Of a stretch of DNA of 64,000 bases, positions 2,233-62,878 are shown piece after piece; positions within the stretch are counted from its first letter, which is position 1; each line of letters opens with the position of its first letter. The DNA is from a virus: IMG/VR virus record IMGVR_UViG_3300026488_000012, positions 96,001-160,000 of that record, one strand, 5' to 3'. The notes below the pieces were generated by a model. The model worked only from the letters and a program-made list of their open reading frames with translations. It did not search any database and was not told the DNA's origin. A program made the position numbers and the translations under genes.

Positions 2233-4581
2233 ATGATGATGAAATTTTTAGATATGGACGCTACAGTAGATGACGCTACTGTAGCGTCTTCTTATAACGA
2301 AGAAGACTATATAATTAAAGACGTAGGTGAAGCCCTTGTTTTACTTAAAGCGGTAGATGATGTTCAAACAGGATTAGAAGAGATAGATGCAACTGAGAAT
2401 GCATTAGGTAAATCGATGGAAGCGTTAGCTTTAGCTACTGAGCTATGGATGGAGTATTCATCGATAAGTCCTGGTTTGGAAGATAGTTATGCTATAGAAG
2501 ATAAAACTAATAAGCTATTCCAACTTACTGACGAGTTAAATATAGAATTACCTCCATCTGCGGGTATGTTAGACAGCGATAAGGATGACGAAAGTAACAC
2601 TAACATCATCTTTAAAATATTAAAGGGTATATGGGATTTTGTAATTAGGATAGTTAGAGGATTTATAAGTCTTATACGTAGAATAATTAGAGGATTTATA
2701 ACTATAGTTAAAAAGATATTCGGTATAAATGACGTCTATGAAAAAGCAGAGAAAAAGAAAGAAGAAGATTTATCCAGACTTGCTGGTGGAGGAGGAGGTT
2801 TCTCCATAGGAGGCGTATCTAGATCAGGAGGTAGTTCTAGTAGCGAAAAAGCTGAGAAGGTAGTAGAAGAAAATAAAACAAAAACAGAAGAAGCTAAGAA
2901 GATATCTGAAAGCGTAGATAAAGCAACCGAGACTAAAAAACCAGAAGAAGCAGATGTGACTAAAACAGGTGTAAAGTCTATAGACGAAGCTATAGAGGAA
3001 TTAGAGAAAATGCCACAAGAGTTTAAAGACGATATATTAGAAGCAGCTAACGACATAGTTAGAAGAACTAAAAAATTAATCTATGAACACTTCAGAGCTA
3101 CATATAGCGGTACCAAGTATAGCATAAAACATATACAGACTTCTTTAGCATTTCCATACATACATGCTTGTTATCTAGCCGCTACTATTAACACATATGT
3201 AGATGTTATAGAATCTCATAAATACGTTAACGGTAGGACAACACTAAACGACTTTATTTCCAGTATAAACGGTAGATTAGCAGAAATAGAAAAAGTACTA
3301 GATGAAAAAAGGATACGTTCTTTTATAACTAACGATGAGTACAGTAACATATATGAGCTTATAGATACGTTAAATAAAGTATTAGGTTATACAGATACTC
3401 GTGAGTTTGCTAATGGTAGAACTATAAGAGGTGAGTTATCTGTTTTAGACTTACTATTTATTCTTATGGGATTCTTGGAAGAAGAGGCTGGTTACATAAT
3501 GGATAACAAATTCACAGAAGTTGTAAGTCCTATTAATGAAGCATTTAGAGGAAGTTTAACTCCTTTAATTAAATTTGAACATACAGCTGGTGATAGTTTA
3601 AAGAATTTAGAAAAAGAGATATTTAACAAGATAGGGTTTAAACTTGTGGATAATAAATACTACGTAGGTAAGATGGGAGATGTTAGACGTTATCTATCAG
3701 GTTCTTTTGAAAAGATAAAAGATAACGAAGAAATAAAGATAGATGTTCTGTCTATAAACGGTAATATACTACATATATTCGTAATTCCTAAAGAGGTTAA
3801 TCTTACGATAGATTACGAACCAGAGTTTATGAAAATGAGGATAAGCTTTAGTACCTTAATGAAGGAACGAAAAGGTGATTTAAAACTAATTAAAAAAGAT
3901 TTAAGAGAGTATATAAGATATATAAAAGACGTTAATGATTATTTACAAAGTTTCTTTGCTACTGTACGTGTAGGCAACTTTGTCATAACGGAAGATTTAT
4001 TCGATTATGATAGTATAACGTTACCAGGGTACGAAAATCCAAGAACTTATGAAGACATTAAAAGTATATTTGGTTATTTACAAAAGGTAAGTTTTCCTAG
4101 AATAAGAGACGAATTAGGGCTAGGAAAAGTACCTATAAATATGGTAGAGGATATGTTGGAAAACAGTATTTTAGCTAATTTAGACAAGTTAGAGAAGACA
4201 GTTGAAAGACTTGATAAATTAATAAAACGTTCTATTAAGTATACGTATAAATTAAACGTTAGAAAAAGTAAAGAGGAATATAAGAAAAATCCTATTTATG
4301 TAGATGGTAAGCCTATGTCTTATAACGAATATCTGGAATGGAAGAGATCAATTATAAATGAATTAACAGGTCTATATGTTAATGTCTCCGTTAGTATAAA
4401 ACAGGTTATATCTTCAGTACTAACTAAGTTTATTAAAAACATAGTTATGATGGCTGTTACTGATTTAAGAGTGATATTAGATAACCCTAATTTAATAAAG
4501 GCATACTACATAGACTTAGATGCAGAGAAAGCGTTTTTAGACAAATATTATAAATACTTAGAGGAAAGGGAGAAAGTATGA
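2233..4581 (+). CDS. Inner head / ejection protein, paralog 1 (phiKZ gp93-gp97 type)
   Basis: Acidic propeptide with G-x-E motifs (TGLEE, PGLED) followed by the amphipathic helix IIFKILKGIWDFVIRIVRGFISLIRRII; N-terminus MKFLDMD is shared with the next two genes. Confidence 0.65.
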   Translation: MMMKFLDMDATVDDATVASSYNEEDYIIKDVGEALVLLKAVDDVQTGLEEIDATENALGKSMEALALATELWMEYSSISPGLEDSYAIEDKTNKLFQLTDELNIELPPSAGMLDSDKDDESNTNIIFKILKGIWDFVIRIVRGFISLIRRIIRGFITIVKKIFGINDVYEKAEKKKEEDLSRLAGGGGGFSIGGVSRSGGSSSSEKAEKVVEENKTKTEEAKKISESVDKATETKKPEEADVTKTGVKSIDEAIEELEKMPQEFKDDILEAANDIVRRTKKLIYEHFRATYSGTKYSIKHIQTSLAFPYIHACYLAATINTYVDVIESHKYVNGRTTLNDFISSINGRLAEIEKVLDEKRIRSFITNDEYSNIYELIDTLNKVLGYTDTREFANGRTIRGELSVLDLLFILMGFLEEEAGYIMDNKFTEVVSPINEAFRGSLTPLIKFEHTAGDSLKNLEKEIFNKIGFKLVDNKYYVGKMGDVRRYLSGSFEKIKDNEEIKIDVLSINGNILHIFVIPKEVNLTIDYEPEFMKMRISFSTLMKERKGDLKLIKKDLREYIRYIKDVNDYLQSFFATVRVGNFVITEDLFDYDSITLPGYENPRTYEDIKSIFGYLQKVSFPRIRDELGLGKVPINMVEDMLENSILANLDKLEKTVERLDKLIKRSIKYTYKLNVRKSKEEYKKNPIYVDGKPMSYNEYLEWKRSIINELTGLYVNVSVSIKQVISSVLTKFIKNIVMMAVTDLRVILDNPNLIKAYYIDLDAEKAFLDKYYKYLEEREKV

Positions 4582-5959: not shown

Positions 5960-7498
5960 ATGAGATTTTTAGATTTAGACTTAAGAGATGACAGATTCAT
6001 AGGTAAAGATGATATCGACCCAGCTATCGTGGCGTTAGAGATCGGTGCAGGACTTAACGACCTAAATATGGAAATGGTTAAACTTGAAATGTTAGGTAGA
6101 GCTGAAGAAGCACTTGCTGAAAGTATTGATTTAGACGAACAAATCGCAGCACAAGGTGTTGCTAATAAAGCTACAGTAACATACGGTATTGAAAGTTTAG
6201 CTATTACTGCGACATTTCTAGGTGTAGACATTCCTGTAGAAGAAGTAGCTGCAGGTATTGAAGACAATGACCAAGAAGGAGCAGCTTCTACTAAGAAAGG
6301 ATTCCTAGATAAAGTTGTTGAAGGAATTAAAAAAGTAATTAAGAAAATTATAGAGTTCGTTAAAAAACTTGTTGATAAAGTTAAAAGCTTTTTCGAAAGC
6401 AAACAACTAGAAAATGTAGCTAAAAAAGCTGAAGAAACTGCTGAGAAACTAGAAGAGAAAGGTGTTACTGAAGTAAAAGATTGTAACCTTGATGACGAAG
6501 ATGTAGAGAAAGCATTCTTTAAAGTAGTTAAAGAAGTACCTGAATATCTATACGCTGGTGGTAAACTAGAATCTATTCCTGATGTTGAAAAAATGGTTAA
6601 CTGGTATGTTGATAAAGAAGTAGTTAACTTCTATAAAAAACTACACGAAATGATTAAAAACTTCAACCCTAAAGGTGCAATGGGAGATTTATTAAAGGCT
6701 CTTAAAGAAGCAGAGACTGGCTGTAACAACAATACTGAAGAGAAATGTAAAAAGAATTCTGAAGTATCTAAACAATTTAAAGACTTAGTTGCAAAAACAA
6801 TTAAACTTGCTAAAGATTTAGATGTGAAATTCACAGGTATTAACAAATTTGTCGTCGATGAACTTAATGGTAAAGCAGGTAAAAGACTTGCTAAACTTGA
6901 AAAACAAAATGGAATTAAATATAAATCAATTCTAATTCCAGGTAGTACAACTATTACAGCTGATGACAAAAATAGGGACGAAATTAAACTTAGAATACAA
7001 GGAACTTTATACCATATTCCATCTGATATTGACGCTGTTGCTGAAGAATTCGAAAATAAAAAATTCAGTAAAGAAGCAGTTGAGAAATTACTGAAATTAA
7101 TTAAATGGCAAACAGAAGCTATAGATAAAGAATTTACTATCAGCACTGAAAAACTTTACAAAAACGTTAAACCTTTAAGTGTTAAAGAACTAATGGATTA
7201 TAGTAAAGTAACTGAGTTCTATAGAGAGCAGGCTAGTAGTATCGCTACAGACATTAAAAATATATCTGATAAGGTCAAAGCAGAAATAGAAGATATAGAA
7301 GAAAAATTAAATACAGAAATGGGTAAAACAGGTGCAGGTACTAAAGCTGATATTCCGATACTAAGCAATGTAAAAAGTATAGTACAGGCAGTCGGTGACA
7401 AGACTTCTACGTTTACTAAAGATACAGGAAAAGTTACAAAAGCTATATCAGCTTACGCTGAATTACCAAAAGTTTGTTCAAAAATTTCTCTTGATTAA
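5960..7498 (+). CDS. Inner head / ejection protein, paralog 3
   Basis: MRFLDLD start, YGIES and AGIED motifs, amphipathic helix FLDKVVEGIKKVIKKIIEFVKKLVDKVKSFF; SD aaggag; followed by a terminator. Confidence 0.65.
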   Translation: MRFLDLDLRDDRFIGKDDIDPAIVALEIGAGLNDLNMEMVKLEMLGRAEEALAESIDLDEQIAAQGVANKATVTYGIESLAITATFLGVDIPVEEVAAGIEDNDQEGAASTKKGFLDKVVEGIKKVIKKIIEFVKKLVDKVKSFFESKQLENVAKKAEETAEKLEEKGVTEVKDCNLDDEDVEKAFFKVVKEVPEYLYAGGKLESIPDVEKMVNWYVDKEVVNFYKKLHEMIKNFNPKGAMGDLLKALKEAETGCNNNTEEKCKKNSEVSKQFKDLVAKTIKLAKDLDVKFTGINKFVVDELNGKAGKRLAKLEKQNGIKYKSILIPGSTTITADDKNRDEIKLRIQGTLYHIPSDIDAVAEEFENKKFSKEAVEKLLKLIKWQTEAIDKEFTISTEKLYKNVKPLSVKELMDYSKVTEFYREQASSIATDIKNISDKVKAEIEDIEEKLNTEMGKTGAGTKADIPILSNVKSIVQAVGDKTSTFTKDTGKVTKAISAYAELPKVCSKISLD

Positions 7499-8161: not shown

Positions 8162-9916
8162 ATGATTATAGCTAGAGTACCTTTGAACAATTTAGAATAT
8201 ACTATATATAAACCACTTATAACATCGGTTGTTAAGTCTTTTTCTATAAAATACTTAAAAGACCCTGATCCTTATTTAACATTTACAGCTGATGCCGATG
8301 TTTTCGGTTCAGGTATGTATGATACCGATTACTCCACGCAATACCAGAAAAGATTTATAGACGTAACATATGAGGTCAGACATGATGATGAAGGCAGTAT
8401 CGTTAATAGTATTAGATTTAACGACGGTTTAGTTTTATTCGACGATAAAGATTTGAAATACTTTAAAATCTTTGGAGAACCTATATCACATACTTTTAAT
8501 TTAACACTTAAGATAAGAAGTAGATTTAAAAATGAACTTAAGCAATTACTTAACCATTTTCAGATGGGTCAGATAGATGATGTTAACTATTTAGTAACAG
8601 ATGCAGATGTATTTTTCTCCATACCTAATAACCTATTAGACTTAGTTAGAAATATCTGCTATTTAAAGTATAACGACGAAGAACTATGGTTCAAATATTT
8701 TACTAAGTTTTCTACTATAGAACTTGATTTCTTAAATAGTAAATCAGGGAAGAAACAACTGCCTATATATCGTATAAAATATAAGGATTTAGCTATCCCA
8801 TTTTCAGCAGAGTTCTTAGATAAAGAAATAGAAAGAGAAGATGGATGGTTTTCTATAGAGATAGGTCTAAGGTTTAATTTAGACATAATAACATCTTTAA
8901 AAGTTCAATATCCTATACTAGTAGCTAACAGACCTATAGAAAAGAGGTTTATAATAATACCAGATAGACTTATAGAGTCAGTAGCATTACCTATAGAAAG
9001 GTCTCTTTACAACGATAAACTTATAAACACTTATTTGGAAAGAGTTAATAACCTCGTTTATAAAAAGATGCGAGAGTTAATGAACACTATAGATGTTGAT
9101 AAGTACATTAAAATATTTAAAGACATAGAAGACGATTATGATATCTTATTCGATTATAAAAAGAAGATAGAAGAATTACATAGCTTAGATAAGAATGTCA
9201 CTAATTATAACAAACTAAAAGAATTAATATTGGAAGCTATACATAAAGATATTAGTAAATACCTAGATACGTTCTATAGATTAAAGAACAATTTAAAAAG
9301 GGTATATCCTATCTATGATATTTGGAGAAACTATCTTACTTATAACGGGTATGAAGTTATTAACGTTTTATTATTACGTATTAGTCCTCGTTCTATGGTT
9401 TACCTTAATCTATACGAGTTATTAAACTTAGGATATAGTAAGGATGTTATTGACTACATCATCGACAATCATAGCTCAGAGATATTTAAATTAAAGGGGT
9501 CGGTATTTCATATGGAAATCTATATAGACGATTTACCATATAAGTATCTAGAAATAGTTAAGGAAGATACATATATAGAAGATTTAGATTTAGAGCTTAA
9601 GAGAGGAGATTTGATAGATAAAAGGATATTAGATCATAATCTAAATAACGAGGATCGTGTATATATAGACTTAAGACCAGTTTATCATTTGGTTATACGT
9701 ATCGCTAATGATTTTAGAAATATTAACTATAAAGTCAATACTGAGTATTTTAGTGTCTTAGGTCAGTTCTTTGCTATTAGAGACATAGAGAACTATTATC
9801 TTATGTCAGATAGGTCTATAATGAAAACAATCAACGCTTTAACTATAACGGCATTATCCGCTAGAGAAATGAGTCCTTTACTGTTAGAAGCTGTAAAAGA
9901 TATGAATAAGGAGTAA
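8162..9916 (+). CDS. Putative virion structural protein (phiKZ-like tail/neck region)
   Basis: 584-aa ORF with SD aggag; function inferred only from its position after the head cluster. Confidence 0.45.
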   Translation: MIIARVPLNNLEYTIYKPLITSVVKSFSIKYLKDPDPYLTFTADADVFGSGMYDTDYSTQYQKRFIDVTYEVRHDDEGSIVNSIRFNDGLVLFDDKDLKYFKIFGEPISHTFNLTLKIRSRFKNELKQLLNHFQMGQIDDVNYLVTDADVFFSIPNNLLDLVRNICYLKYNDEELWFKYFTKFSTIELDFLNSKSGKKQLPIYRIKYKDLAIPFSAEFLDKEIEREDGWFSIEIGLRFNLDIITSLKVQYPILVANRPIEKRFIIIPDRLIESVALPIERSLYNDKLINTYLERVNNLVYKKMRELMNTIDVDKYIKIFKDIEDDYDILFDYKKKIEELHSLDKNVTNYNKLKELILEAIHKDISKYLDTFYRLKNNLKRVYPIYDIWRNYLTYNGYEVINVLLLRISPRSMVYLNLYELLNLGYSKDVIDYIIDNHSSEIFKLKGSVFHMEIYIDDLPYKYLEIVKEDTYIEDLDLELKRGDLIDKRILDHNLNNEDRVYIDLRPVYHLVIRIANDFRNINYKVNTEYFSVLGQFFAIRDIENYYLMSDRSIMKTINALTITALSAREMSPLLLEAVKDMNKE

Positions 9917-9919
9917 TAA

Positions 9920-11176
9920 ATGGGATTGTTTAATGATGGAATCGATTATGAAAGTTATACAAGGTCAGTTATAAATGAAAACGATAAACAAATAGACACT
10001 GGTATAGCCATAGCGGATAAAACTAACTATAACTATATATTCGAATCTCAAACACCTATAGATTCGGTTATAAATCAGTTACCTGGTTATGTTATTAAAG
10101 TAACATATTTTAACAAATCACAAGGTAATGCTGAGGTCTACGAATATCCAGATTTTACACTTGATGACTTAATAGTTGAATATACAAAAATAGACAATAT
10201 GTCTTTATACTTAGAGTCTCCTATAGAAGCTACTGAGTTAAACAATTACGAGGGTACTGGTTATATAAAATCTCGTATAGAACCTCAACCAGGGGATTTC
10301 TTTTTAGCTAAGTTATACGACGGTAGATTAGGTTTATTTGTAGTTACTACTACAGACGCTATAACTTATAACTTTAGTAGGATATTTAAAATAACATTTA
10401 AGTTTTATTTATTCCCTTCTGATAAGGATTTAAATAAAATAGAAAAGAACACAGCATTAGAGTTAATAGCTGATGATAAATTAAACAGCTCTAGAGAAGA
10501 AATACTCTATGAGAAGTCCAGATATATAACGATTAGAGAAGTTATAAAAAGAGAGAATGAACTATTAGAAATATGGAAAAGAAGATTTATAACATCGTAT
10601 AATAACTATAATATAGGTTTCAGAGATGAGAACGGTTTCTTGGTAGTAGACCCGTATTTTGAAAAATACGTCGTATCTTTGATAGGATTAACTAACATTA
10701 AAGACGTAACTTTAACTAATTTAAATATGGAAGAACGTTCTATATTTGATGTTATCTTAGATAGAGATAAGATTGCATATGGTCTAATGAAACACTACAC
10801 CATAGAACCTGCTATAGATACGTTCTTCACACCCTTCTTGAAATCCTATGCTTATAATCAAATGGATAAGATAGTTAGATTAACTAAAGATGAGAATGAA
10901 CCATATTACGTATTTTCTAAAACACTATATGATAATTTAATACCAGAGGATAATGATGAAGAAGTGGTATTTGATTCTCCTATAGAATTAGGAGTTTATA
11001 GCGTTATTAACGATATTAACATCGATTTGAATATCCTAGATGAAATCTTAGATGAAATAAATGAATTAATAAAATCTGATAATGAACGACATATGTATTA
11101 CAAGATCCCTGTGGTTATTAATATTTTAAGATTTTACAAATTTAAGAATAACTATACTAACCATTTTCTATTTTAG
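9920..11176 (+). CDS. Putative virion structural protein (phiKZ-like, neck/tail)
   Basis: Motif IEPQPGDFFLAKLYDGRLGLFVVT resembles conserved phiKZ-like virion proteins of this region; SD aaggag. Confidence 0.5.
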   Translation: MGLFNDGIDYESYTRSVINENDKQIDTGIAIADKTNYNYIFESQTPIDSVINQLPGYVIKVTYFNKSQGNAEVYEYPDFTLDDLIVEYTKIDNMSLYLESPIEATELNNYEGTGYIKSRIEPQPGDFFLAKLYDGRLGLFVVTTTDAITYNFSRIFKITFKFYLFPSDKDLNKIEKNTALELIADDKLNSSREEILYEKSRYITIREVIKRENELLEIWKRRFITSYNNYNIGFRDENGFLVVDPYFEKYVVSLIGLTNIKDVTLTNLNMEERSIFDVILDRDKIAYGLMKHYTIEPAIDTFFTPFLKSYAYNQMDKIVRLTKDENEPYYVFSKTLYDNLIPEDNDEEVVFDSPIELGVYSVINDINIDLNILDEILDEINELIKSDNERHMYYKIPVVINILRFYKFKNNYTNHFLF

Positions 11177-25945: not shown

Positions 25946-26051
25946 GGTAATATTTTTAATTTTAACTATATATATTGTTATCTTACTAAAATGCAATAAA
26001 ACTACAAGATTAGGAGGTAAATATGAGTAATGAATTTTACAAAATTAAGGA
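25946..26051 (+). repeat. 106-bp direct repeat, copy 2
   Basis: Identical to 17381-17486, including ATG AGT AAT GAA TTT TAC AAA ATT AAG GA. Confidence 0.95.
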
Positions 26052-28263
26052 TATTATAAATAGATACGCAAAGTATTTTAAAGATAACAACTCTGAGTTA
26101 AGACTGAGATATGAGTTATTTTCAATTCACGCGCTTAACCCGTTTGTTATATATAACTCTTCTCCAAGAGGATTGATGATGGCGTCGCATGTATCACAGA
26201 TACTTGTTATAGATAATCCTGAGAAAGACATAATACAGACGCCTACTATGAATGATCTTAGTAGATATGTTATATCTAAGAAGTTTCTACATGATGCAGA
26301 GATAATTGATGTAATAAGTAGATATAGTAATCCATCCATAGGTAAAGAGGTAGAGTATGATATCATCTATAGAAGACTAGATGACGGTAAGGTTGACGTA
26401 ATGAAAATACCATTATTTAATAAATTTCACACCTATTTTGGATTCCTATACAAATTCCTATTAAATCATAGAGAGTTATACCCGGGAACAATAGTTAAAA
26501 AAGATACATACGTAGCAGTACCGCCTACTGTTATAGATGTTGATGACGAGGGCAATTTTGACTATGGGTTTGGTTTAAATGCTAACGTAGCAATGATAAC
26601 TATACCGGAGACTGCAGAAGATGGTATAGTGATATCCGAATCATTCGCTAAGAAACTTAAATTTAAGACTATAGAGAAAAGAGTTTTATTCGTAGAACCT
26701 GATGAGGTATTACTTAATCTTTATGGAAATGATGAACATTATAAGCCTTTCCCTGAGATAGGAGAGGAAATAAACCCAGACGGTGTTTTAATGGCAAAGA
26801 GAAAGATAGATGATGAGATAATAATAGGACTATTGTCTAAGGATGAGTTAAGAAGAGTTAATCCTATGTTCGACGAGGCTGTATATTGTAAAGGAAAAGT
26901 TATAGATATTAAAGTCTATAAAAATTATAAGAACAAGATGATACCTATGGAACCAGACGAGTTTATTAACAAATATGTACAGGGTATGAGTGATTACCAT
27001 AGAAGAATAGTTGATATATACAACGTTCTTAAAAGATCAGACCCTAACTTAGAAATGACTCCACTGTTTATAAAATATGTATCGAACAGTATAGGTTATT
27101 TAGAATCAGAAGAGTATAGAAGAAAGAAAGTATATAGAAAGGAGGAGATAGAACTTTACAGAATAGAAATAGAAGTAGTTAGGGAAATAATACCTACTAA
27201 AGGATTTAAGTTGTCAGACTTCCACGGGGGTAAATCTGTGATAGTGGATGTATGGAAAGACGAAGATATGCCAGTAGATGAATTTGGAAATAGAGCTGAT
27301 ATCATAGCTGACCCGTCTGCTACCGTATCCAGACTTAACATAGGTAGGATGTACGAGAGGTACATAAAGGCTGCGTCCAGAGAAGCTAAGAGACAGCTTA
27401 TAAATAAAATAAGAGAGTTACTTAATCTAACTGAAGTATCTTCTCAAGATGTCGATATATTATCAGACGAACAAGTAGTTAATTTATTTAAAGAATATGT
27501 AATAGAATTTGTAAATATGTTCGATACTGAACAAAAAGCTGCTTACAACCAAGTATTACAGGGTAATGATATTGTCTCTATGAGAGAGATAATTAAAGAG
27601 ATAGTAGATGAGGAGTTCTATATCTATCTAACTCTGGATAATCCGAAAAGAGCTTATGAGATAGTGGTAGATATAGAGTTGTCTAAATTTAAACCTCCAT
27701 ATGGTAAGGTTAAGTTCAATTATTATGGTACTCCTGTGGAAACTAAAAATCCGGTAATGATAGCACCGATGTATTACATACTTCTATCTAAAATAGCAGA
27801 TGACTATCTCGTAACATCTTCTGCTAAGTTAAATCATTTCGGTACTCCTATTACTGTATCATCAGTGGATAAACACAGGTTACCGCATAGGAATTCTCCT
27901 ACAAGAGTATTAGGAGAGACTGAAACTAGACTATATGCGTCGTATTGTGGTAGAGAGTTTCTAGCCGAGTTAAGAAATAGAAATTCGTCTATAGAACAAC
28001 ACGCTACAGTCTATAGAAATATATTAAACGCAGATGAACCTACAGATATAGATGATGTTATACCGAGAGACGTTTATCCGTATAAGAACGATAGACCTCT
28101 AACTATGTTAGAAGCATTATTTCATTCAGTAGGACTGGATTTGAAATATACGGAAGATATAGATTTACTTCACGAGCCACAGCAATTAAAGACTAATGAA
28201 AATCTCGGTGATGATATAGAAATATACGAGGAAGATAAATCATCTTCAGATAGAGAGGGTTAA
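26023..28263 (+). CDS. rpoB: Non-virion RNA polymerase beta subunit, C-terminal part (phiKZ gp71/73-like)
   Basis: NSSPRGLMMASH, TAEDGIVISESFA, GFKLSDFHGGKSVI, SRLNIGRMYE and RVLGETETRL are beta-subunit catalytic-region motifs. Confidence 0.9.
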   Translation: MSNEFYKIKDIINRYAKYFKDNNSELRLRYELFSIHALNPFVIYNSSPRGLMMASHVSQILVIDNPEKDIIQTPTMNDLSRYVISKKFLHDAEIIDVISRYSNPSIGKEVEYDIIYRRLDDGKVDVMKIPLFNKFHTYFGFLYKFLLNHRELYPGTIVKKDTYVAVPPTVIDVDDEGNFDYGFGLNANVAMITIPETAEDGIVISESFAKKLKFKTIEKRVLFVEPDEVLLNLYGNDEHYKPFPEIGEEINPDGVLMAKRKIDDEIIIGLLSKDELRRVNPMFDEAVYCKGKVIDIKVYKNYKNKMIPMEPDEFINKYVQGMSDYHRRIVDIYNVLKRSDPNLEMTPLFIKYVSNSIGYLESEEYRRKKVYRKEEIELYRIEIEVVREIIPTKGFKLSDFHGGKSVIVDVWKDEDMPVDEFGNRADIIADPSATVSRLNIGRMYERYIKAASREAKRQLINKIRELLNLTEVSSQDVDILSDEQVVNLFKEYVIEFVNMFDTEQKAAYNQVLQGNDIVSMREIIKEIVDEEFYIYLTLDNPKRAYEIVVDIELSKFKPPYGKVKFNYYGTPVETKNPVMIAPMYYILLSKIADDYLVTSSAKLNHFGTPITVSSVDKHRLPHRNSPTRVLGETETRLYASYCGREFLAELRNRNSSIEQHATVYRNILNADEPTDIDDVIPRDVYPYKNDRPLTMLEALFHSVGLDLKYTEDIDLLHEPQQLKTNENLGDDIEIYEEDKSSSDREG

Positions 28264-28273
28264 ATCCCTCTCT
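28252..28273 (+). terminator. Terminator hairpin
   Basis: agagaggg-ttaaat-ccctctct overlapping the stop codon. Confidence 0.65.
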
Positions 28274-28325
28274 TGTTATTTCAAATTTTTTCATTTATGT
28301 ATTACTAAACTGTAACAAAACAAAA

Positions 28326-28446
28326 AACCTCTCTACCAAGTACTGCTCCTCTGGTGTGAAGGAGAAGGTCGAGACTAACCCCGGTGGTATAAGGGGAGTC
28401 AGAAGACCTTCTCGACGAAGAGGAGACGTGGAACGGTAGAGAGGTT
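28326..28446 (+). ncRNA. Unassigned structured RNA leader, copy 1
   Basis: Four nested helices (12, 7, 9 and 4+4 bp) with compensatory changes relative to copy 2 at 46661-46794; conserved loops AGUACUG, AGAA, GACGA, GUGGAA. Confidence 0.8.
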
Positions 28447-28460
28447 AAAAGGAGTAGATA

Positions 28461-28967
28461 ATGAAAAAAATTAAAGTGGAGTACGATTATAAAGAAATTT
28501 CTTCCCCTGATATTGACGTTATAAAGGAGATAAGAATTGGCGAGAAAGTAGTCTCGCCAATAGCAGTAAAAGGAGTAGAATCCATTAGTCCCAACAGATT
28601 ATTTAGCAATGTAACTAGTGCAAGAGCAATAGTTCTTGCTTATCTTTTTGAGGATGAGATAAATAATTTGTTGCCTTACCCTATGATGATTTTCGATAAT
28701 AGAGGAACAAATGTGGTCGCTACGGAAAGAGAGGAAGATGAATTTCTCTCTTATGATTATGTAGATATGACAGGGGTTAATTGTGGAAGAAGTCAACCGA
28801 CTTATAAGATATTTGAGTTAACCGGGGACCTAATGACCGATGTTTATCACATCATTAACCCTCCGGTGAGGATAGATTATATCTATCCTAAGTTTAGAGC
28901 GGATATTCTTTATTTAGGGAATCAGGCGTTCGCTCTACTTGATGTAGAATTTATAAAACCATATTAA
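28461..28967 (+). CDS. Hypothetical accessory protein downstream of the structured leader
   Basis: 168 aa; SD aaaaggag directly 3-prime of the RNA basal helix. Confidence 0.7.
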   Translation: MKKIKVEYDYKEISSPDIDVIKEIRIGEKVVSPIAVKGVESISPNRLFSNVTSARAIVLAYLFEDEINNLLPYPMMIFDNRGTNVVATEREEDEFLSYDYVDMTGVNCGRSQPTYKIFELTGDLMTDVYHIINPPVRIDYIYPKFRADILYLGNQAFALLDVEFIKPY

Positions 28968-28968
28968 T

Positions 28969-28986
28969 GGGAGTTTATAAACTCCC
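28969..28986 (+). terminator. Intrinsic terminator, perfect 18-bp palindrome
   Basis: gggagttta|taaactccc followed by T-runs. Confidence 0.7.
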
Positions 28987-29102
28987 TTTAATTTCTTCTT
29001 TTTTTTTTATTTTAAACATATATATATATATGTATGTATTTCGAACTGATTTCGTGTATATACTATTAAAACGCAATAAAACAAAAAAAAAAGGAGTTAA
29101 AA

Positions 29103-30131: not shown

Positions 30132-30206
30132 TTTTTAATTTTAACTATATATATTGTTATCTTACTAAAATGCAATAAAACTACAAGATTAGGAGGTAAA
30201 TATGAG
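30132..30206 (+). repeat. Leader repeat, copy 3 (75 bp)
   Basis: Identical to the core of 17381-17486, ending at ATGAG. Confidence 0.95.
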
Positions 30207-32241
30207 AATAGGCGTTAGAACACTTTATAGATTACCATTAAAAGACATAGTTGAGTTAAGAACTAATTTAACATTAGTATTCGAAGACGGTATAGAGATA
30301 CAAGCTACGTATAAAGAGGTTATAATATTTAGAGCATTAACAGATTTTCTTACCAAATGGGAAGTACCCATTACGTCAGATATGTGGTTAAGTAACTTCT
30401 ATACGAAAGGTTACTTCAGTAAGGATACTTACTTAGAAATGTATTCTCTTATGTATCAGAGAATCGTTAAACTAATTCTTGAACCGCAAGGAAGATATGG
30501 AGAACATTCCGAGGTATTAAAAGACATATTCAAATCTGTTAATATTTTCGTAAATGAGATTGTATCTAAGATACAGGATTATAATATAGGTATAGAGATT
30601 ATAGATATTTTACCTATAGCGTTAGACGAGGAACAGCTGTTATCTATTATGGAAGTAGAGAAAAATCCTACACAAGAATCTATCGAACACACGTATCAAG
30701 TGTTAGATAAAGTTATACATAAACCTGAGAATAGTGGAAAAGTTATGAGACTCGTTTATGATTCAGGTATGGTTAATCTCAATCAGCTAAGACAGCTATT
30801 CGGTAGTAGGGGATTCTTAACAGAGATAAATTCACAGATATTTAAGAAACCTATGATAAATAGCTTTACATTAGGTTTTAGGGATATGTATGAAGCTATT
30901 ATAGAGTCAAGAGCGGGTGCGAAAGCTCTTAACTTATCTACAAAAGCTATTCAGAAATCTGAGAAGACAGCAAGAGAATTTCAGTTAGCTACTATGCCTG
31001 TCGAAGAAATAGTTTACGGTGACTGCGGTAACAGAGACTATATGGAGATAACTGTAAGACCTAAAGAAATAGATGAAGATGGTAATGTAGTACACCAAGG
31101 AGACCTTAAAAACCTGTTAGGTTCTAAGTTTTTAAACGATAAAGGAGAATGGGAAACAATTACTCCTGAACATAAATATTTAGAAGGACAGACTATTAAG
31201 TTAAGGTCAGTATTACACTGTAAATTAAGAAACAAGAAGCAAATATGTACTGCGTGTTATGGAGACCTCGCTTATGGTATGTTTTTACATCAAAATGTGG
31301 GACATATAAATACTACAAACATAACAAGGGATATTTCACAGTCACTACTATCTACTAAACACTTATTAAAGTCAGCATCATCCGCTCCACTTAATCCACA
31401 TCCATCTGTATTTGAGTTCTTTAACCTTAAGGATGAGAAGCTATTTATAAAACCTGAGTATATAGCTAAAAAGAACAAAAACAAAATTTATATACTTGTA
31501 CCACAATCACAGGCTAGAGGGTTAAGAGGAATAAATGATATCAATATCCTTAACGTCAATATTAACAAGATATCAAGAATAACTAACATCGCAATAGTGA
31601 TAGAAGATCCAGAAGGTAATAAAGAAATACATCCGGTGTCTATACTATCGGATAGAAGATATGGATTTTTCACATTCGATTTTATCAGATATATAAGAAA
31701 GAACGGTTATTTTGTAATGGCAGAGTTTCCTGATTTTTATGCTATCGATATCTCAAACATCGATAGGAAGCTACCTATTATAAAATATGAGAGAGCAGAG
31801 TTTGACTTTAATATCTTAAGCGATGAGTTTAGTAAGCTTATAGCGGATAAGAAATACGTTATAGTAGGAGGTAAACGTAAATCTGAATATACTCCTGAAG
31901 TATTAGTTCAGAAACTATTTGACTTACTTAACAAGAAGCTATCTATAAATATTAAAAAGATAGAAGCTATGGTTTACGGATTTACTGCTTATAACTTAGA
32001 CCAAGATAACTTCGATTTAGGAAGAAACTCCGAATATATGGATGTTATCGGATTGAAGTATGCTATAGATTATAGGTCTATAGGGGGAAGTTATGACTGG
32101 AGTAGATTCACTACTAAAATATATTCTCCGTATATGTTCTTCCCTAGAAATAAACCTGATCATCCATTAGACGTATTATTCAAACCTAACGAAGTATTAA
32201 ATTACTATAAAAACGCATACCCATTAATAAAGGATAAGTGA
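30202..32241 (+). CDS. rpoC: Non-virion RNA polymerase beta-prime subunit, C-terminal part (phiKZ gp74-like)
   Basis: QLRQLFGSRGFL, ESRAGAKAL (bridge-helix region), zinc site LHCK...ICTACYG, and QSLLSTKH (trigger-loop region). Confidence 0.9.
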   Translation: MRIGVRTLYRLPLKDIVELRTNLTLVFEDGIEIQATYKEVIIFRALTDFLTKWEVPITSDMWLSNFYTKGYFSKDTYLEMYSLMYQRIVKLILEPQGRYGEHSEVLKDIFKSVNIFVNEIVSKIQDYNIGIEIIDILPIALDEEQLLSIMEVEKNPTQESIEHTYQVLDKVIHKPENSGKVMRLVYDSGMVNLNQLRQLFGSRGFLTEINSQIFKKPMINSFTLGFRDMYEAIIESRAGAKALNLSTKAIQKSEKTAREFQLATMPVEEIVYGDCGNRDYMEITVRPKEIDEDGNVVHQGDLKNLLGSKFLNDKGEWETITPEHKYLEGQTIKLRSVLHCKLRNKKQICTACYGDLAYGMFLHQNVGHINTTNITRDISQSLLSTKHLLKSASSAPLNPHPSVFEFFNLKDEKLFIKPEYIAKKNKNKIYILVPQSQARGLRGINDINILNVNINKISRITNIAIVIEDPEGNKEIHPVSILSDRRYGFFTFDFIRYIRKNGYFVMAEFPDFYAIDISNIDRKLPIIKYERAEFDFNILSDEFSKLIADKKYVIVGGKRKSEYTPEVLVQKLFDLLNKKLSINIKKIEAMVYGFTAYNLDQDNFDLGRNSEYMDVIGLKYAIDYRSIGGSYDWSRFTTKIYSPYMFFPRNKPDHPLDVLFKPNEVLNYYKNAYPLIKDK

Positions 32242-46612: not shown

Positions 46613-46631
46613 TTTTATTTTTTTATAATTA

Positions 46632-46639
46632 TATATTAC
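46632..46639 (+). promoter_or_regulatory. Early promoter core TATATTAC
   Basis: Exact match to the phiKZ early promoter core, preceded by a T-rich tract, about 20 nt before the structured leader. Confidence 0.65.
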
Positions 46640-46660
46640 TAAGATACGTGATTAAAAAAA

Positions 46661-46794
46661 AACCCGTAAGTCCTTTTTGAAAGAGTACTGCTCTCCTGGA
46701 GAAGGAGGAGACTACGACTTATCCCGTTGTTCTGTGGGAAGTCAGAAAGTCTCCTCGACGAAGGAGAGATGTGGAAAATCAAGAAGGCAGGGGT
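46661..46794 (+). ncRNA. Unassigned structured RNA leader, copy 2
   Basis: Same four-helix fold as 28326-28446 with different but complementary stem sequences. Confidence 0.8.
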
Positions 46795-46808
46795 AAAAGG
46801 AGCCAAAA

Positions 46809-48995
46809 ATGGCTAAATTAATAGTGAAAAGAGATAGAATTGTATTTAAAAAAGAAACTATCTTAGAAAATAGATCTTTGACAATTAAAGGTCTAAAAAG
46901 ATTTCTCAACAAGAGAAATCTTAAAATAAAAGAAAAAGATTTAAGCGCAGCATATGCTGCGTATACTGGAGAAAATTCTCCAGTTAAAGTTCCTGTTATA
47001 ACAGGGAAAAGAAGAAAAGGAGTTGTTTCTAGGGAAGAAAGAATCCCTAGAAACACTCCTGTTAAAAGTCTAAGGGGGGATATCCTCCCTAAAAAAGTCT
47101 CTTTAAAAGAGAGACTTAAAGCGGCTGTGAAAAAAGCAAAAGAAGACGGTCATAGATTCGCAGCCGTTAGAACCGCATACGGTCTTATCGAAGTTCGTAG
47201 AAGAACGAGCTTTGATGAGACCTATGAAGTTTTTATGGAGGTCTTTAAAGAAAAAAGGGCTGAAATACTAGCGTATGAAAAAGCGCTAAGTGAGGACTTG
47301 TCCCATCCTCACTTAGCGAAACATTATATTAAAGAGTTTGGGGACAAAATTATCCCATACTTTAAGCTGGTTGATACAATGGCTTTATCCTACGGTATGA
47401 ATCCAAGGAACGTGTGGGATTCATGCGGAGTATGGGGAATATCTCCTGACCTATTCCTATTCAAGATTGGTGACAAAGAACATCTTCACAACATAAAAGT
47501 TGTGAAGATGTTCGTGGAGATAGCCCTAGAAACTTTAAGAGTTAGGGGGAGGGTGGATCGTATTCCAAGTATATTCCACCCATCAGTATTTTTCGAACAA
47601 AGAGAAAGAATGAAAGAATACAAAGAAAAAATTGATTCTAATATAGTCTATCCAGGGATCGAAGAGTATGAAATATTTATCTCGATCTTCTGGAGACTAT
47701 ATAAAAAATACGGAGTAGACGGAATTCCGTCACTACGCATTACCCAGTTAATGAACTGGGATGAAACCTGGGATGAATTACTGGGTTGGAAAGACGAGGA
47801 TCTATTACCTCTAACGCTAATGTTAATAGATTCGGACTTCTACTCCATCGATAAAGTTAAAACCGGTGAGGGTAGAAGAGGCGGCTATTATAAGATAAAT
47901 TTCAGAAAACTAAATAACTGGAAGAAACTTAGCAAGAGGGAAAAAGCTAAGTTTCTTCCAGCGCCATTAGCTTGGAGACTCCTATTCAATAGGAAAGCTC
48001 CAGATGGAATCGAATTTCGTGATCCTAATCCTGTTAACTTCACGAGAGCTTCTCAAAGGGCTTTTCGTGAGTTAGCAGAAATCATCAAACGCGACGACAG
48101 GGGATATTTTGCTGCTAACATTAAAGCAGCGTATCACCTTAGTCTCGCGTTTGGTGATATGAATACAGTGAAAAGATGGCTAAACGCACTAGGATTGAAA
48201 GTGGATGCGCTAGGCATTCACGACGCGTTCGTAAACGCCCACCATTTCTTAAAGCTTAAATATAAAGAAAAATGGGCGGCGCTCCTAATCAAATTCCCTG
48301 GGCTCAGAAAAGTTACATGGGCTTTTAGGGAGTTTGAGAGGGAGTTTGGACGCGTAGCAACTAAAACTGAAATCAGTAGCTATGCCGCGACTAAAAAATA
48401 TAGGAATGTAAAATTAAAAGATGTCGCGGAGATAGCTGCTGAGTTAAAATTATCTCAGAGGGAATTTGAGGATTATCAAAACTTTTTCCTCAAAACCCCT
48501 GAGAAAAAATCTACTATGTTACCAAATGTGGTTGTCGAGAAAGGTGAATATAAATTTAGAAAACTCGATGACCACGATAAAATAGGCCCGTTCTTAGGGT
48601 TGTTGACAGACTGTTGTCAACACCTCCATAACGCAGGTGACACATGTGCTAAGGCGGGATGGAGGGACCCTGAGAGCGGGTTCTATGTCGTCGAGAAAGA
48701 CGGCAAAATAGTTGCACAATCTTGGGCGTGGAGAGGTAAAAAAGGCGAGCTTTGCTTTGACTCTATAGAAGGGCTCGGTAATGTTAATGTTAATATAATT
48801 GCCGAGCTATATAAAGAAGCAGCTCGTCAGTTAGTCGGCAAAATGGGGATCACTCGCGTGACTGTGGGTGATACCTCATATGGCTTAACTGAGGATGTAA
48901 AACAAATCCTCGGTGGAGTCAACCGCGAGTCAGCGGTCATGATCAAAAAGGTGTCTTATACAGACGCTGATGATCAGTGGCTCTTAGCCGACTAA
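46809..48995 (+). CDS. Large accessory protein with basic N-terminus and probable GNAT-fold C-terminal domain
   Basis: C-terminal GFYVVEKDGKIVAQSWAWR-GELCFDSIEG-IIAELYKEAARQL-ITRVTVG follows the strand/helix order of GNAT acyltransferases; base composition visibly more GC-rich than core genes. Confidence 0.5.
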   Translation: MAKLIVKRDRIVFKKETILENRSLTIKGLKRFLNKRNLKIKEKDLSAAYAAYTGENSPVKVPVITGKRRKGVVSREERIPRNTPVKSLRGDILPKKVSLKERLKAAVKKAKEDGHRFAAVRTAYGLIEVRRRTSFDETYEVFMEVFKEKRAEILAYEKALSEDLSHPHLAKHYIKEFGDKIIPYFKLVDTMALSYGMNPRNVWDSCGVWGISPDLFLFKIGDKEHLHNIKVVKMFVEIALETLRVRGRVDRIPSIFHPSVFFEQRERMKEYKEKIDSNIVYPGIEEYEIFISIFWRLYKKYGVDGIPSLRITQLMNWDETWDELLGWKDEDLLPLTLMLIDSDFYSIDKVKTGEGRRGGYYKINFRKLNNWKKLSKREKAKFLPAPLAWRLLFNRKAPDGIEFRDPNPVNFTRASQRAFRELAEIIKRDDRGYFAANIKAAYHLSLAFGDMNTVKRWLNALGLKVDALGIHDAFVNAHHFLKLKYKEKWAALLIKFPGLRKVTWAFREFEREFGRVATKTEISSYAATKKYRNVKLKDVAEIAAELKLSQREFEDYQNFFLKTPEKKSTMLPNVVVEKGEYKFRKLDDHDKIGPFLGLLTDCCQHLHNAGDTCAKAGWRDPESGFYVVEKDGKIVAQSWAWRGKKGELCFDSIEGLGNVNVNIIAELYKEAARQLVGKMGITRVTVGDTSYGLTEDVKQILGGVNRESAVMIKKVSYTDADDQWLLAD

Positions 48996-62588: not shown

Positions 62589-62878
62589 CTAAGTTTCATA
62601 ACTACACTTTTGTTATCAGTGACGATGATTCCCTGAAATTACCATCTATACTTAATGAAGTTGATAACATTTTAGATAATGCTAATACGTATGATGACGT
62701 AGTTATAGGGTTCAAAGAGTTATTAAGTAATAAAAACGCTTATGATATCCTGAGTAGTATGGATGAACTCACGTATGTCATAACCATAGAGTTCAAACCG
62801 TTAACTAATGAACTATTTGAATTTCTAATCAGAGAAACAGGTAATAGTTATCCTATAATAGACTTTACATACAGGTAG
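62585..62878 (+). CDS. Start-less 97-codon ORF in the -1 frame of 61890..62588 (frameshift extension or split by a sequencing error)
   Basis: VTKFHNYTFVISDDDSLKLPSILNEVDNILD...IIDFTYR*; no ATG/GTG/TTG until codon 59; begins at the A_AAA_AAG heptamer and ends in a terminator. Confidence 0.6.
   Translation, partial: VTKFHNYTFVISDDDSLKLPSILNEVDNILDNANTYDDVVIGFKELLSNKNAYDILSSMDELTYVITIEFKPLTNELFEFLIRETGNSYPIIDFTYR

Follow-up and report, generated by a model that had tools for sequence, protein, structure and literature searches.

What is the GC-rich segment that separates promoter from ribosome-binding site at positions 28326–28446 of this phage DNA? The window analysed here, 64,000 nucleotides in all, comprises bases 96001–160000 of a 179,975-nt IMG/VR virus record that is rated 66% complete and belongs to an uncultured jumbo phage. 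The genome has a GC content of about 30% (28–34%) while that of the element is 50–55%, so that the GC-rich island described by the original prediction is indeed one. It forms a leader of some 120 nt, an irregular hairpin with about 45 stacked pairs, which recurs ahead of five unrelated genes, each time in the interval from promoter to ribosome-binding site. The phage encodes split subunits of a multisubunit RNA polymerase. One of these, an Rpb2 domain 6 protein (the RNAP β-like gene, 26023–28263), lies directly upstream of the cassette that carries the element; another (30202–32241) has a β-subunit match in PHROG and shares only about 26% identity with the corresponding proteins of cultured jumbo phages of the phiKZ type. 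The closer relatives, with 60–63% identity in the β-like subunit, are metagenomic contigs only, some of them labelled as hydrothermal vent. To our knowledge, post-transcriptional control in the phiKZ-like jumbo phages is almost unexplored.

How many copies of the element are there? A covariance model (CM R1), built from the three most similar distinct copies, detects five in the whole contig of about 180 kb, four of them distinct, and finds further homologs in a related contig. The two copies on which the original prediction was founded lie in the window, on the plus strand, where it had placed them, and every helix that it listed is present as written. They are designated here copy C (28326–28446) and copy D (46672–46789, or 46662–46794 with an outer extension); copy D consists of a core at 46672–46787 plus an outer 4-bp extension. 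The conserved loop strings occur at only these two places in the window, against chance expectations of 0.21 and 0.00 matches. The other copies lie elsewhere in the genome: copy B at 3114–3231, the more divergent copy E (92 bits) at 62621–62742, and copy A, split over both contig ends (G000:C1:1–119 and 179798–179975; seen in L001, L005 and L009). Copies A and C show 100% identity, which takes in the promoter and also half of the terminator upstream. Since this identity reaches to the contig ends, the assembly evidently broke inside the repeat; the two ends that carry the cassette may be joinable or may represent separate copies.

In both window copies the minimum free energy (MFE) structure is a rod of stacked helices, P1 to P4. 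In copy C, P1 pairs 28326–28337 with 28435–28446, P2 pairs 28346–28352 with 28419–28425 and P3 pairs 28362–28370 with 28405–28413. Beyond these, P4a (28373–28376/28397–28400) and P4b (28379–28382/28393–28396) lead to a terminal loop at 28383–28392. Internal loops interrupt the rod. Next to P1, AGUAC (28339–28343; 46684–46688 in copy D) faces its partner GGAA (28430–28433). Between P2 and P3 there is an asymmetric loop whose 5′ strand, a bulge followed by GAAG, occupies 28353–28361 and lies opposite GACGA at 28414–28418. Between P3 and P4a, an AGAA strand (28401–28404) stands opposite two variable nucleotides (28371–28372).

Is this fold under selection as RNA? The MFE is −60.7 kcal/mol for copy C (z = −6.99) and −54.3 kcal/mol for copy D (z = −4.49); in each case 0 of 200 shuffled sequences folded as well. 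Among the three distinct copies that resemble each other most, both sides are changed in 12 pairs and 95% of the cells are paired. In an alignment of six sequences, the four distinct copies of the contig together with two homologs from the related contig L070, 24 of 36 pairs are changed on both sides and 91.5% of the cells are paired. When the partners were slid against one another only 36–54% were paired, and none of 500 shuffles reached the observed covariation score. In P1, 10 of the 12 pairs are changed on both sides. The ‘full’ covariation claimed originally from two copies needs amendment to this extent: two copies alone are insufficient, and the covariation is shown by the 24 double-sided pairs over six sequences.

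The folds contain 2–6 G–U pairs, and in eight of eight sequences the forward strand forms the more stable fold when compared with its reverse complement (in L070a, for example, −39.5 versus −23.9 kcal/mol). Taken together, the compensatory changes, the G–U pairs and the strand asymmetry indicate selection on an RNA fold in the same sense as the genes. We rejected an antisense or DNA-level function, since none of the reverse complements folds as well as the forward strand. We conclude that the element is a structured RNA of the sense strand and, with little doubt, a genuine cis leader. The rod has a predicted energy of −48 to −60 kcal/mol and the fold is predicted to persist at 70°C, at −19 to −27 kcal/mol. 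It leaves both the Shine–Dalgarno (SD) sequence and the AUG single-stranded: the SD is unpaired in the MFE structure of all four distinct copies, at 37 and at 70°C.

Are the loops better conserved than the helices, as had been proposed? Moderately so among the four distinct copies, where 56% of loop columns are invariant and 40% of stem columns (p = 0.10). The proposal does not extend to the L070 homologs, from which GAAG/GACGA and AGAA have gone. On the other hand, AGUA opposite GAA is invariant in eight of eight distinct homologs (the four copies here, two in L070 and one each in L063 and L064) and is the sole internal module kept in all of them. It is flanked by regular helices on both sides, the covarying P1 on one and a distal C–G pair on the other. 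The MFE structure prefers a UAC/GUG pairing in this basal loop, which we rejected in favour of AGUA/GAA with a C–G closing pair because the changes in copy E break it. Three coordinated base changes in that copy leave the closing C–G continued by two Watson–Crick pairs (U–A, U–A). The earlier assignment of AGUAC/GGAA to the bulged-G loop-E module has thus been strengthened, both by the invariance over eight homologs and by the changes in copy E.

The conserved pattern supports identification of AGUA/GAA as a loop-E (bulged-G) motif. As in loop E and the sarcin–ricin loop (SRL), AGUA is set against GAA, a C–G pair closes the distal side and a Watson–Crick helix abuts the other; here the motif is one module of a larger RNA and not a family in itself. 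Motifs of this kind are classic protein-recognition surfaces, as in the SRL with the elongation factors and in loop E of eukaryal 5S RNA. In the 23S SRL a GAGA tetraloop caps the motif, whereas in the leader an arm of about 85 nt (P2–P4) takes the place of the cap. Only L063 has a CGAGAGG hairpin, a separate one elsewhere in the RNA.

The loop between P2 and P3 is less uniform. In copies D and B it has a 3-nt bulge, GGA, with GA opposite GA (GAAG versus GACGA); these two copies, with their Watson–Crick stem, 3-nt bulge and candidate G–A/A–G pairs, resemble a K-turn in sequence. Unlike a K-turn, the loop has a bulge of 5 nt in copy C and of 5–6 nt over copies C and E, carries an extra base on the non-bulged strand and is absent from L070. 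We term it K-turn-like only, on account of the longer bulge in copies C and E and its loss from L070. A pseudoknot between the GUUGUU apical loop and either the 5′ tail or the GACGA strand was also considered, and rejected as fitting only one or some of the copies.

Is the leader confined to this phage? In L070, CM R1 detects two homologs (6447–6565 and 9869–9986; 42 bits, E about 1e-9). Both keep P1, AGUACUG / AUGUGGAA, the 9-bp P3 and a GUUGUU-type apical loop, and both are without the GAAG/GACGA and AGAA loops. A second model, CM R2, applied in targeted searches of 401-nt intergenic stretches, gives modest support for homologs in L064 (19.6 bits) and L063 (17.3 bits). The L063 copy, identical in L073 and L074, lies upstream of a 43%-identical ortholog of the 728-aa gene that follows copy D; P1 and AGUAC / ACGUGGAAC are retained there, but the interior that they enclose differs. 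L064 keeps AGUA/GAA, AGUCAGAA and a GUUG loop. Throughout the family the basal helix and, next to it, the AGUA/GAA loop-E module stay constant, as does a GUUG-type apical loop in most members; only the lineage of this phage has the K-turn-like loop and the AGAA loop.

Other orthologs of the 728-aa gene carry leaders of another build. In L068 (identical to L071; 9860–9985), L069 (9815–9990), L075 (8690–8830) and L076 (3040–3175) these are structured, 130–190 nt long and different in architecture, each closed by a basal helix, and none has a match in Rfam. A GUUGYUA-type hairpin loop is kept in the L068 and L069 leaders. The L077 ortholog has no structured leader, and in L072 (IMGVR_UViG_3300009873_001528, about 9110–9290) tandem units of about 22 nt, gaaatgttgttgaaatgtttct, stand upstream of a distant homolog of the same gene. 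The element is absent beside the RNAP β gene of the relatives with 60–63% identity. A search for related loci with single proteins or with a two-sequence alignment returned no relatives, and one with a 21-sequence alignment only two. Matches outside the phage clade in loop-string pattern scans of viral, metagenome and genome contigs are at chance level, none of them scoring with CM R1, and blastn against cultured phages revealed no similarity.

How is the leader placed within its transcription units? Each copy is preceded by a terminator-like hairpin and then by a promoter-like motif, TTATATATTACTAA, with a GTAA box. At copy C, on the plus strand, the hairpin of the upstream RNAP β-like gene (28252–28273) has its 3′ half within the repeated cassette. 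The early-type promoter motif TTATGTATTACTAA (28295–28308) is followed by the GTAA box and an A-rich spacer; the leader starts 17 nt past the motif. P1 ends at 28446, the SD sequence GGAG begins at 28451 (28451–28454), and the 168-aa ORF runs from its ATG at 28461 to 28967. At copy D, on the same strand, the motif TTATATATTACTAA is at 46629–46642, GGAG at 46799–46802 and the 728-aa ORF at 46809–48995. Over the copies the leader starts 17–20 nt past the promoter motif and ends 4–6 nt ahead of GGAG, bearing out the position between an early-type promoter and an SD that had been described. Copies B and E sit behind variant promoter motifs. The TTATATATTACTAA-type motif presumably resembles the early promoters of phiKZ-type phages. 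Fourteen sites in the contig match a strict search for it, and looser variants lie ahead of further genes. The phiKZ-type early promoters are strongly conserved (PMC11512511).

Only five units carry the leader. At least nine promoter sites run through an A-rich spacer of about 20 nt straight to the SD, without the element. Because motif, spacer and SD remain intact at these many sites, the element looks like a cassette placed inside the A-rich spacer between promoter and SD. The recurrent motif (TTATATATTACTAA, a GTAA or GCAA box, A-rich spacer, AGGAG) stands ahead of many genes, within the window at 28295–28308, 46629–46642, 29056–29085 and 30150–30180 among others in the contig, and a terminator-like hairpin ends nearly every unit.

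The five downstream genes are unrelated to one another. They encode proteins of 138, 255 and 168 aa, the conserved 728-aa protein and a MYG1-like protein. The last, behind copy E (G000:C1:62761–63609; L010 1641–2489), is of the MYG1/UPF0160 type (Pfam PF03690, E = 1.6e-25). The 728-aa protein belongs to a family conserved in jumbo-phage contigs from vents, whose members share the invariant motifs TDCCQH and QSWAWRG; Pfam offers no match for it, and the leads towards PcfJ- or GNAT-like proteins are weak. Its paralog at G000:C1:30804–32729 has the promoter and is without the leader. The unit of copy C is monocistronic, since a terminator-like hairpin (28969–28986) comes directly after the 168-aa gene and a separate promoter-like motif precedes the gene beyond it; copies D and E are each followed by a single gene and then by genes on the opposite strand. 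A 15-codon upstream ORF that starts at the AUG of AUGUGGAA occurs only in copies D (46769–46816) and B (G000:C1:3212–3259). A leader peptide was rejected on this ground: without conservation in copies C and E, the ORF probably has no function.

Does the leader belong to a described RNA family? At the gathering score Rfam gives 0 matches in the window and in seven related loci. At E ≤ 10 both copies and their relatives match nothing real, the best sub-threshold hits being chance miRNA or lncRNA models, in agreement with the original failure to place the element in any riboswitch or ribozyme family. Our search of the literature turned up no description of such a leader.

What, then, might it do? 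We favour a reading, to which we assign a probability of roughly 0.4, in which the leader is a cis-acting 5′-UTR domain that stabilises or insulates its mRNA and is recognised by a protein. At a more general level, the leader probably sets the stability or the translation of its mRNAs. According to this proposal, it would make up nearly all of the 5′ UTR in a minority of the promoter-proximal transcription units. The RNA would fold co-transcriptionally into a closed, very stable rod, in this lineage probably bent at the K-turn-like hinge, that would take up all of the 5′ UTR but a short A-rich tail and the ribosome-binding site. Such a rod could shield the 5′ part of the mRNA from 5′-end-dependent decay and insulate the ribosome-binding site. 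Lying a single helix from the SD, the loop-E module would offer a docking site to a host or phage protein, which in turn could tune the translation or the lifetime of the leader mRNAs.

Several observations sit uneasily with parts of this proposal. A single-stranded tail of 10–15 nt, as we infer for the 5′ end, would weaken the case for a classical 5′-terminal stabiliser, and a simple stabiliser has no need of conserved internal loops. Loops exceed stems in conservation by a moderate margin only. A search for a candidate binding protein in the 66%-complete contig found no L7Ae, L25, KH, S1 or RNase III. The unrelated architectures of orthologous leaders speak for a structural role of a general kind more than for a specific operator.

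The main rival to the stabiliser and protein-operator mechanism is RNase processing, which we consider unlikely: a duplex cut by host RNase III or another endonuclease would leave a 5′ end at a fixed point, with effects on stability or translation. There is no shortage of duplex, with about 25 stacked pairs in P1, the loop-E stack and P2 and about 17 more in P3 and P4. The copies are several and share conserved internal loops, as the T7 sites do, and they lie between an early-type promoter and the first ribosome-binding site, which is where the RNase III sites of T7 early R0.3 and of the lambda N leader are found. But large asymmetric loops interrupt the helices, loop E (the only internal module common to the family) is not a known determinant of RNase III, and the contig contains no RNase III gene, although the host enzyme would suffice. 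In favour of a riboswitch, whose internal-loop pocket would bind a small molecule or an ion and so change downstream expression, one can cite that the 5′ UTR is structured and covaries, that some unpaired bases are conserved and that Rfam offers no match. Were the rod to open, CUCC in the CU-rich 5′ strands of P2 could even base-pair with the SD sequence GGAG. The MFE structures at 37 and 70°C, however, contain no terminator or SD-sequestering alternative, and the four distinct copies have neither a U-tract terminator after the element nor a helix that sequesters the SD; this makes a riboswitch improbable. The great stability of the rod, the unrelated downstream genes, the loss of the K-turn-like and AGAA loops in L070 and the differing architectures of orthologous leaders all point the same way. 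Might the nascent leader instead bind the phage RNA polymerase, in the manner of HK022 put, and alter elongation or termination? The element lies directly downstream of promoters, in cis by position, in a phage that encodes its own multisubunit polymerase. Yet the unit of copy C ends at its own terminator, the next gene having its own promoter, and copies D and E serve single genes, so that antitermination of this type has nothing obvious to act upon; we give it little credence.

Action in trans has a slim chance. A decoy or small RNA derived from the leader could titrate a host factor, such as a loop-E binder, CsrA-like GGA binders or a defence sensor; five copies behind a recurrent promoter motif would give a high dose, and GGA is found in unpaired positions. 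5′-UTR-derived sRNAs have been reported in phiKZ-like phages (PMC11512511). But no terminator or known processing site precedes the SD, an ORF always follows directly, and the GAGA loop that defines the SRL is absent, its place being taken by the arm of about 85 nt, which contradicts the SRL-like decoy entertained originally. The internal loops raise a different possibility, itself improbable: in this phage lineage the K-turn-like hinge might dock the loop-E loop on the AGAA loop and so create a compact core that is catalytic, ligand-sensing or exoribonuclease-resistant. In its catalytic variant such a core may represent a new self-cleaving class that trims the 5′ ends of early mRNAs; for the resistant variant the viral xrRNAs are the analog. 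Were docking real, the function would be autonomous to the RNA, which would then not be a passive protein site. The specific case of a self-cleaving ribozyme, with the two loops docked as loops B and A of the hairpin ribozyme, we regard as scarcely credible. AGAA is indeed the loop A strand of the hairpin ribozyme, and the loop-E and AGAA loops lie 7–9 bp to either side of the hinge-like loop. However, the strand opposite AGAA consists of two variable nucleotides (GA, AC or AA) without N-GUC, no Rfam ribozyme matches at E ≤ 10, and the hinge and AGAA loops that would make up the core are missing from the L070 homologs; the new ribozyme that had been suggested finds no support. Equally hard to credit is a recombination cassette without any RNA function, like the PeSL elements of T4. 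From half terminator through promoter to leader, copy C and the contig ends show 100% identity, and the cassettes flank unrelated ORFs; this arrangement does suggest PeSL-like shuffling of the cassette, but covariation, G–U pairs and strand asymmetry contradict shuffling as the sole explanation.

As a thermostable RNA cassette set on chosen promoter-proximal genes, the leader would offer a handle on the way in which early expression is graded in phages of this type. Its compact and modular build, its great stability, its loop-E module and its candidate K-turn make it attractive for structural work. It might also find use as a 5′-UTR insulator or stabiliser part in thermophiles or AT-rich hosts. 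More widely, metagenomic jumbo phages hold RNA families that have yet to be named: at least four further leader architectures precede the orthologs of a single gene.

How does the leader compare with known systems? Its position and form recall the T7 R0.3 and lambda N leaders, in which repeated irregular hairpins with conserved internal loops also lie between an early promoter and the first ribosome-binding site. Those leaders have neither the loop-E module nor the GC-rich thermostable design, and share no sequence similarity with the one described here. According to works listed in PMC3997798, 5′ stem-loops stabilise bacterial mRNAs. Like the ompA, papA and aprE stabilisers referenced there, the leader sets a stable fold close to the 5′ end and leaves the SD beyond it free. 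The stabilisers are simple hairpins a few nucleotides from the 5′ end, whereas the leader extends over about 120 nt, contains conserved non-helical modules and probably has a 5′ tail of 10–15 nt. In phiKZ and 201phi2-1 an sRNA upstream of a gp182-like tail gene is likewise a structured 5′-UTR element of conserved position (PMC11512511); unlike the leader it precedes another gene, is present in a single copy and is defined by premature termination. The T4-type PeSLs (PMC2839356, PMC4122927) similarly consist of a repeated terminator and early promoter that flank unrelated, variable ORFs, but they are without a structured leader, whereas here the leader itself covaries. The general kind, the leader structures of phage early mRNAs, is already known; within it, the element described here constitutes a new RNA family that Rfam does not contain and that is built from known modules.
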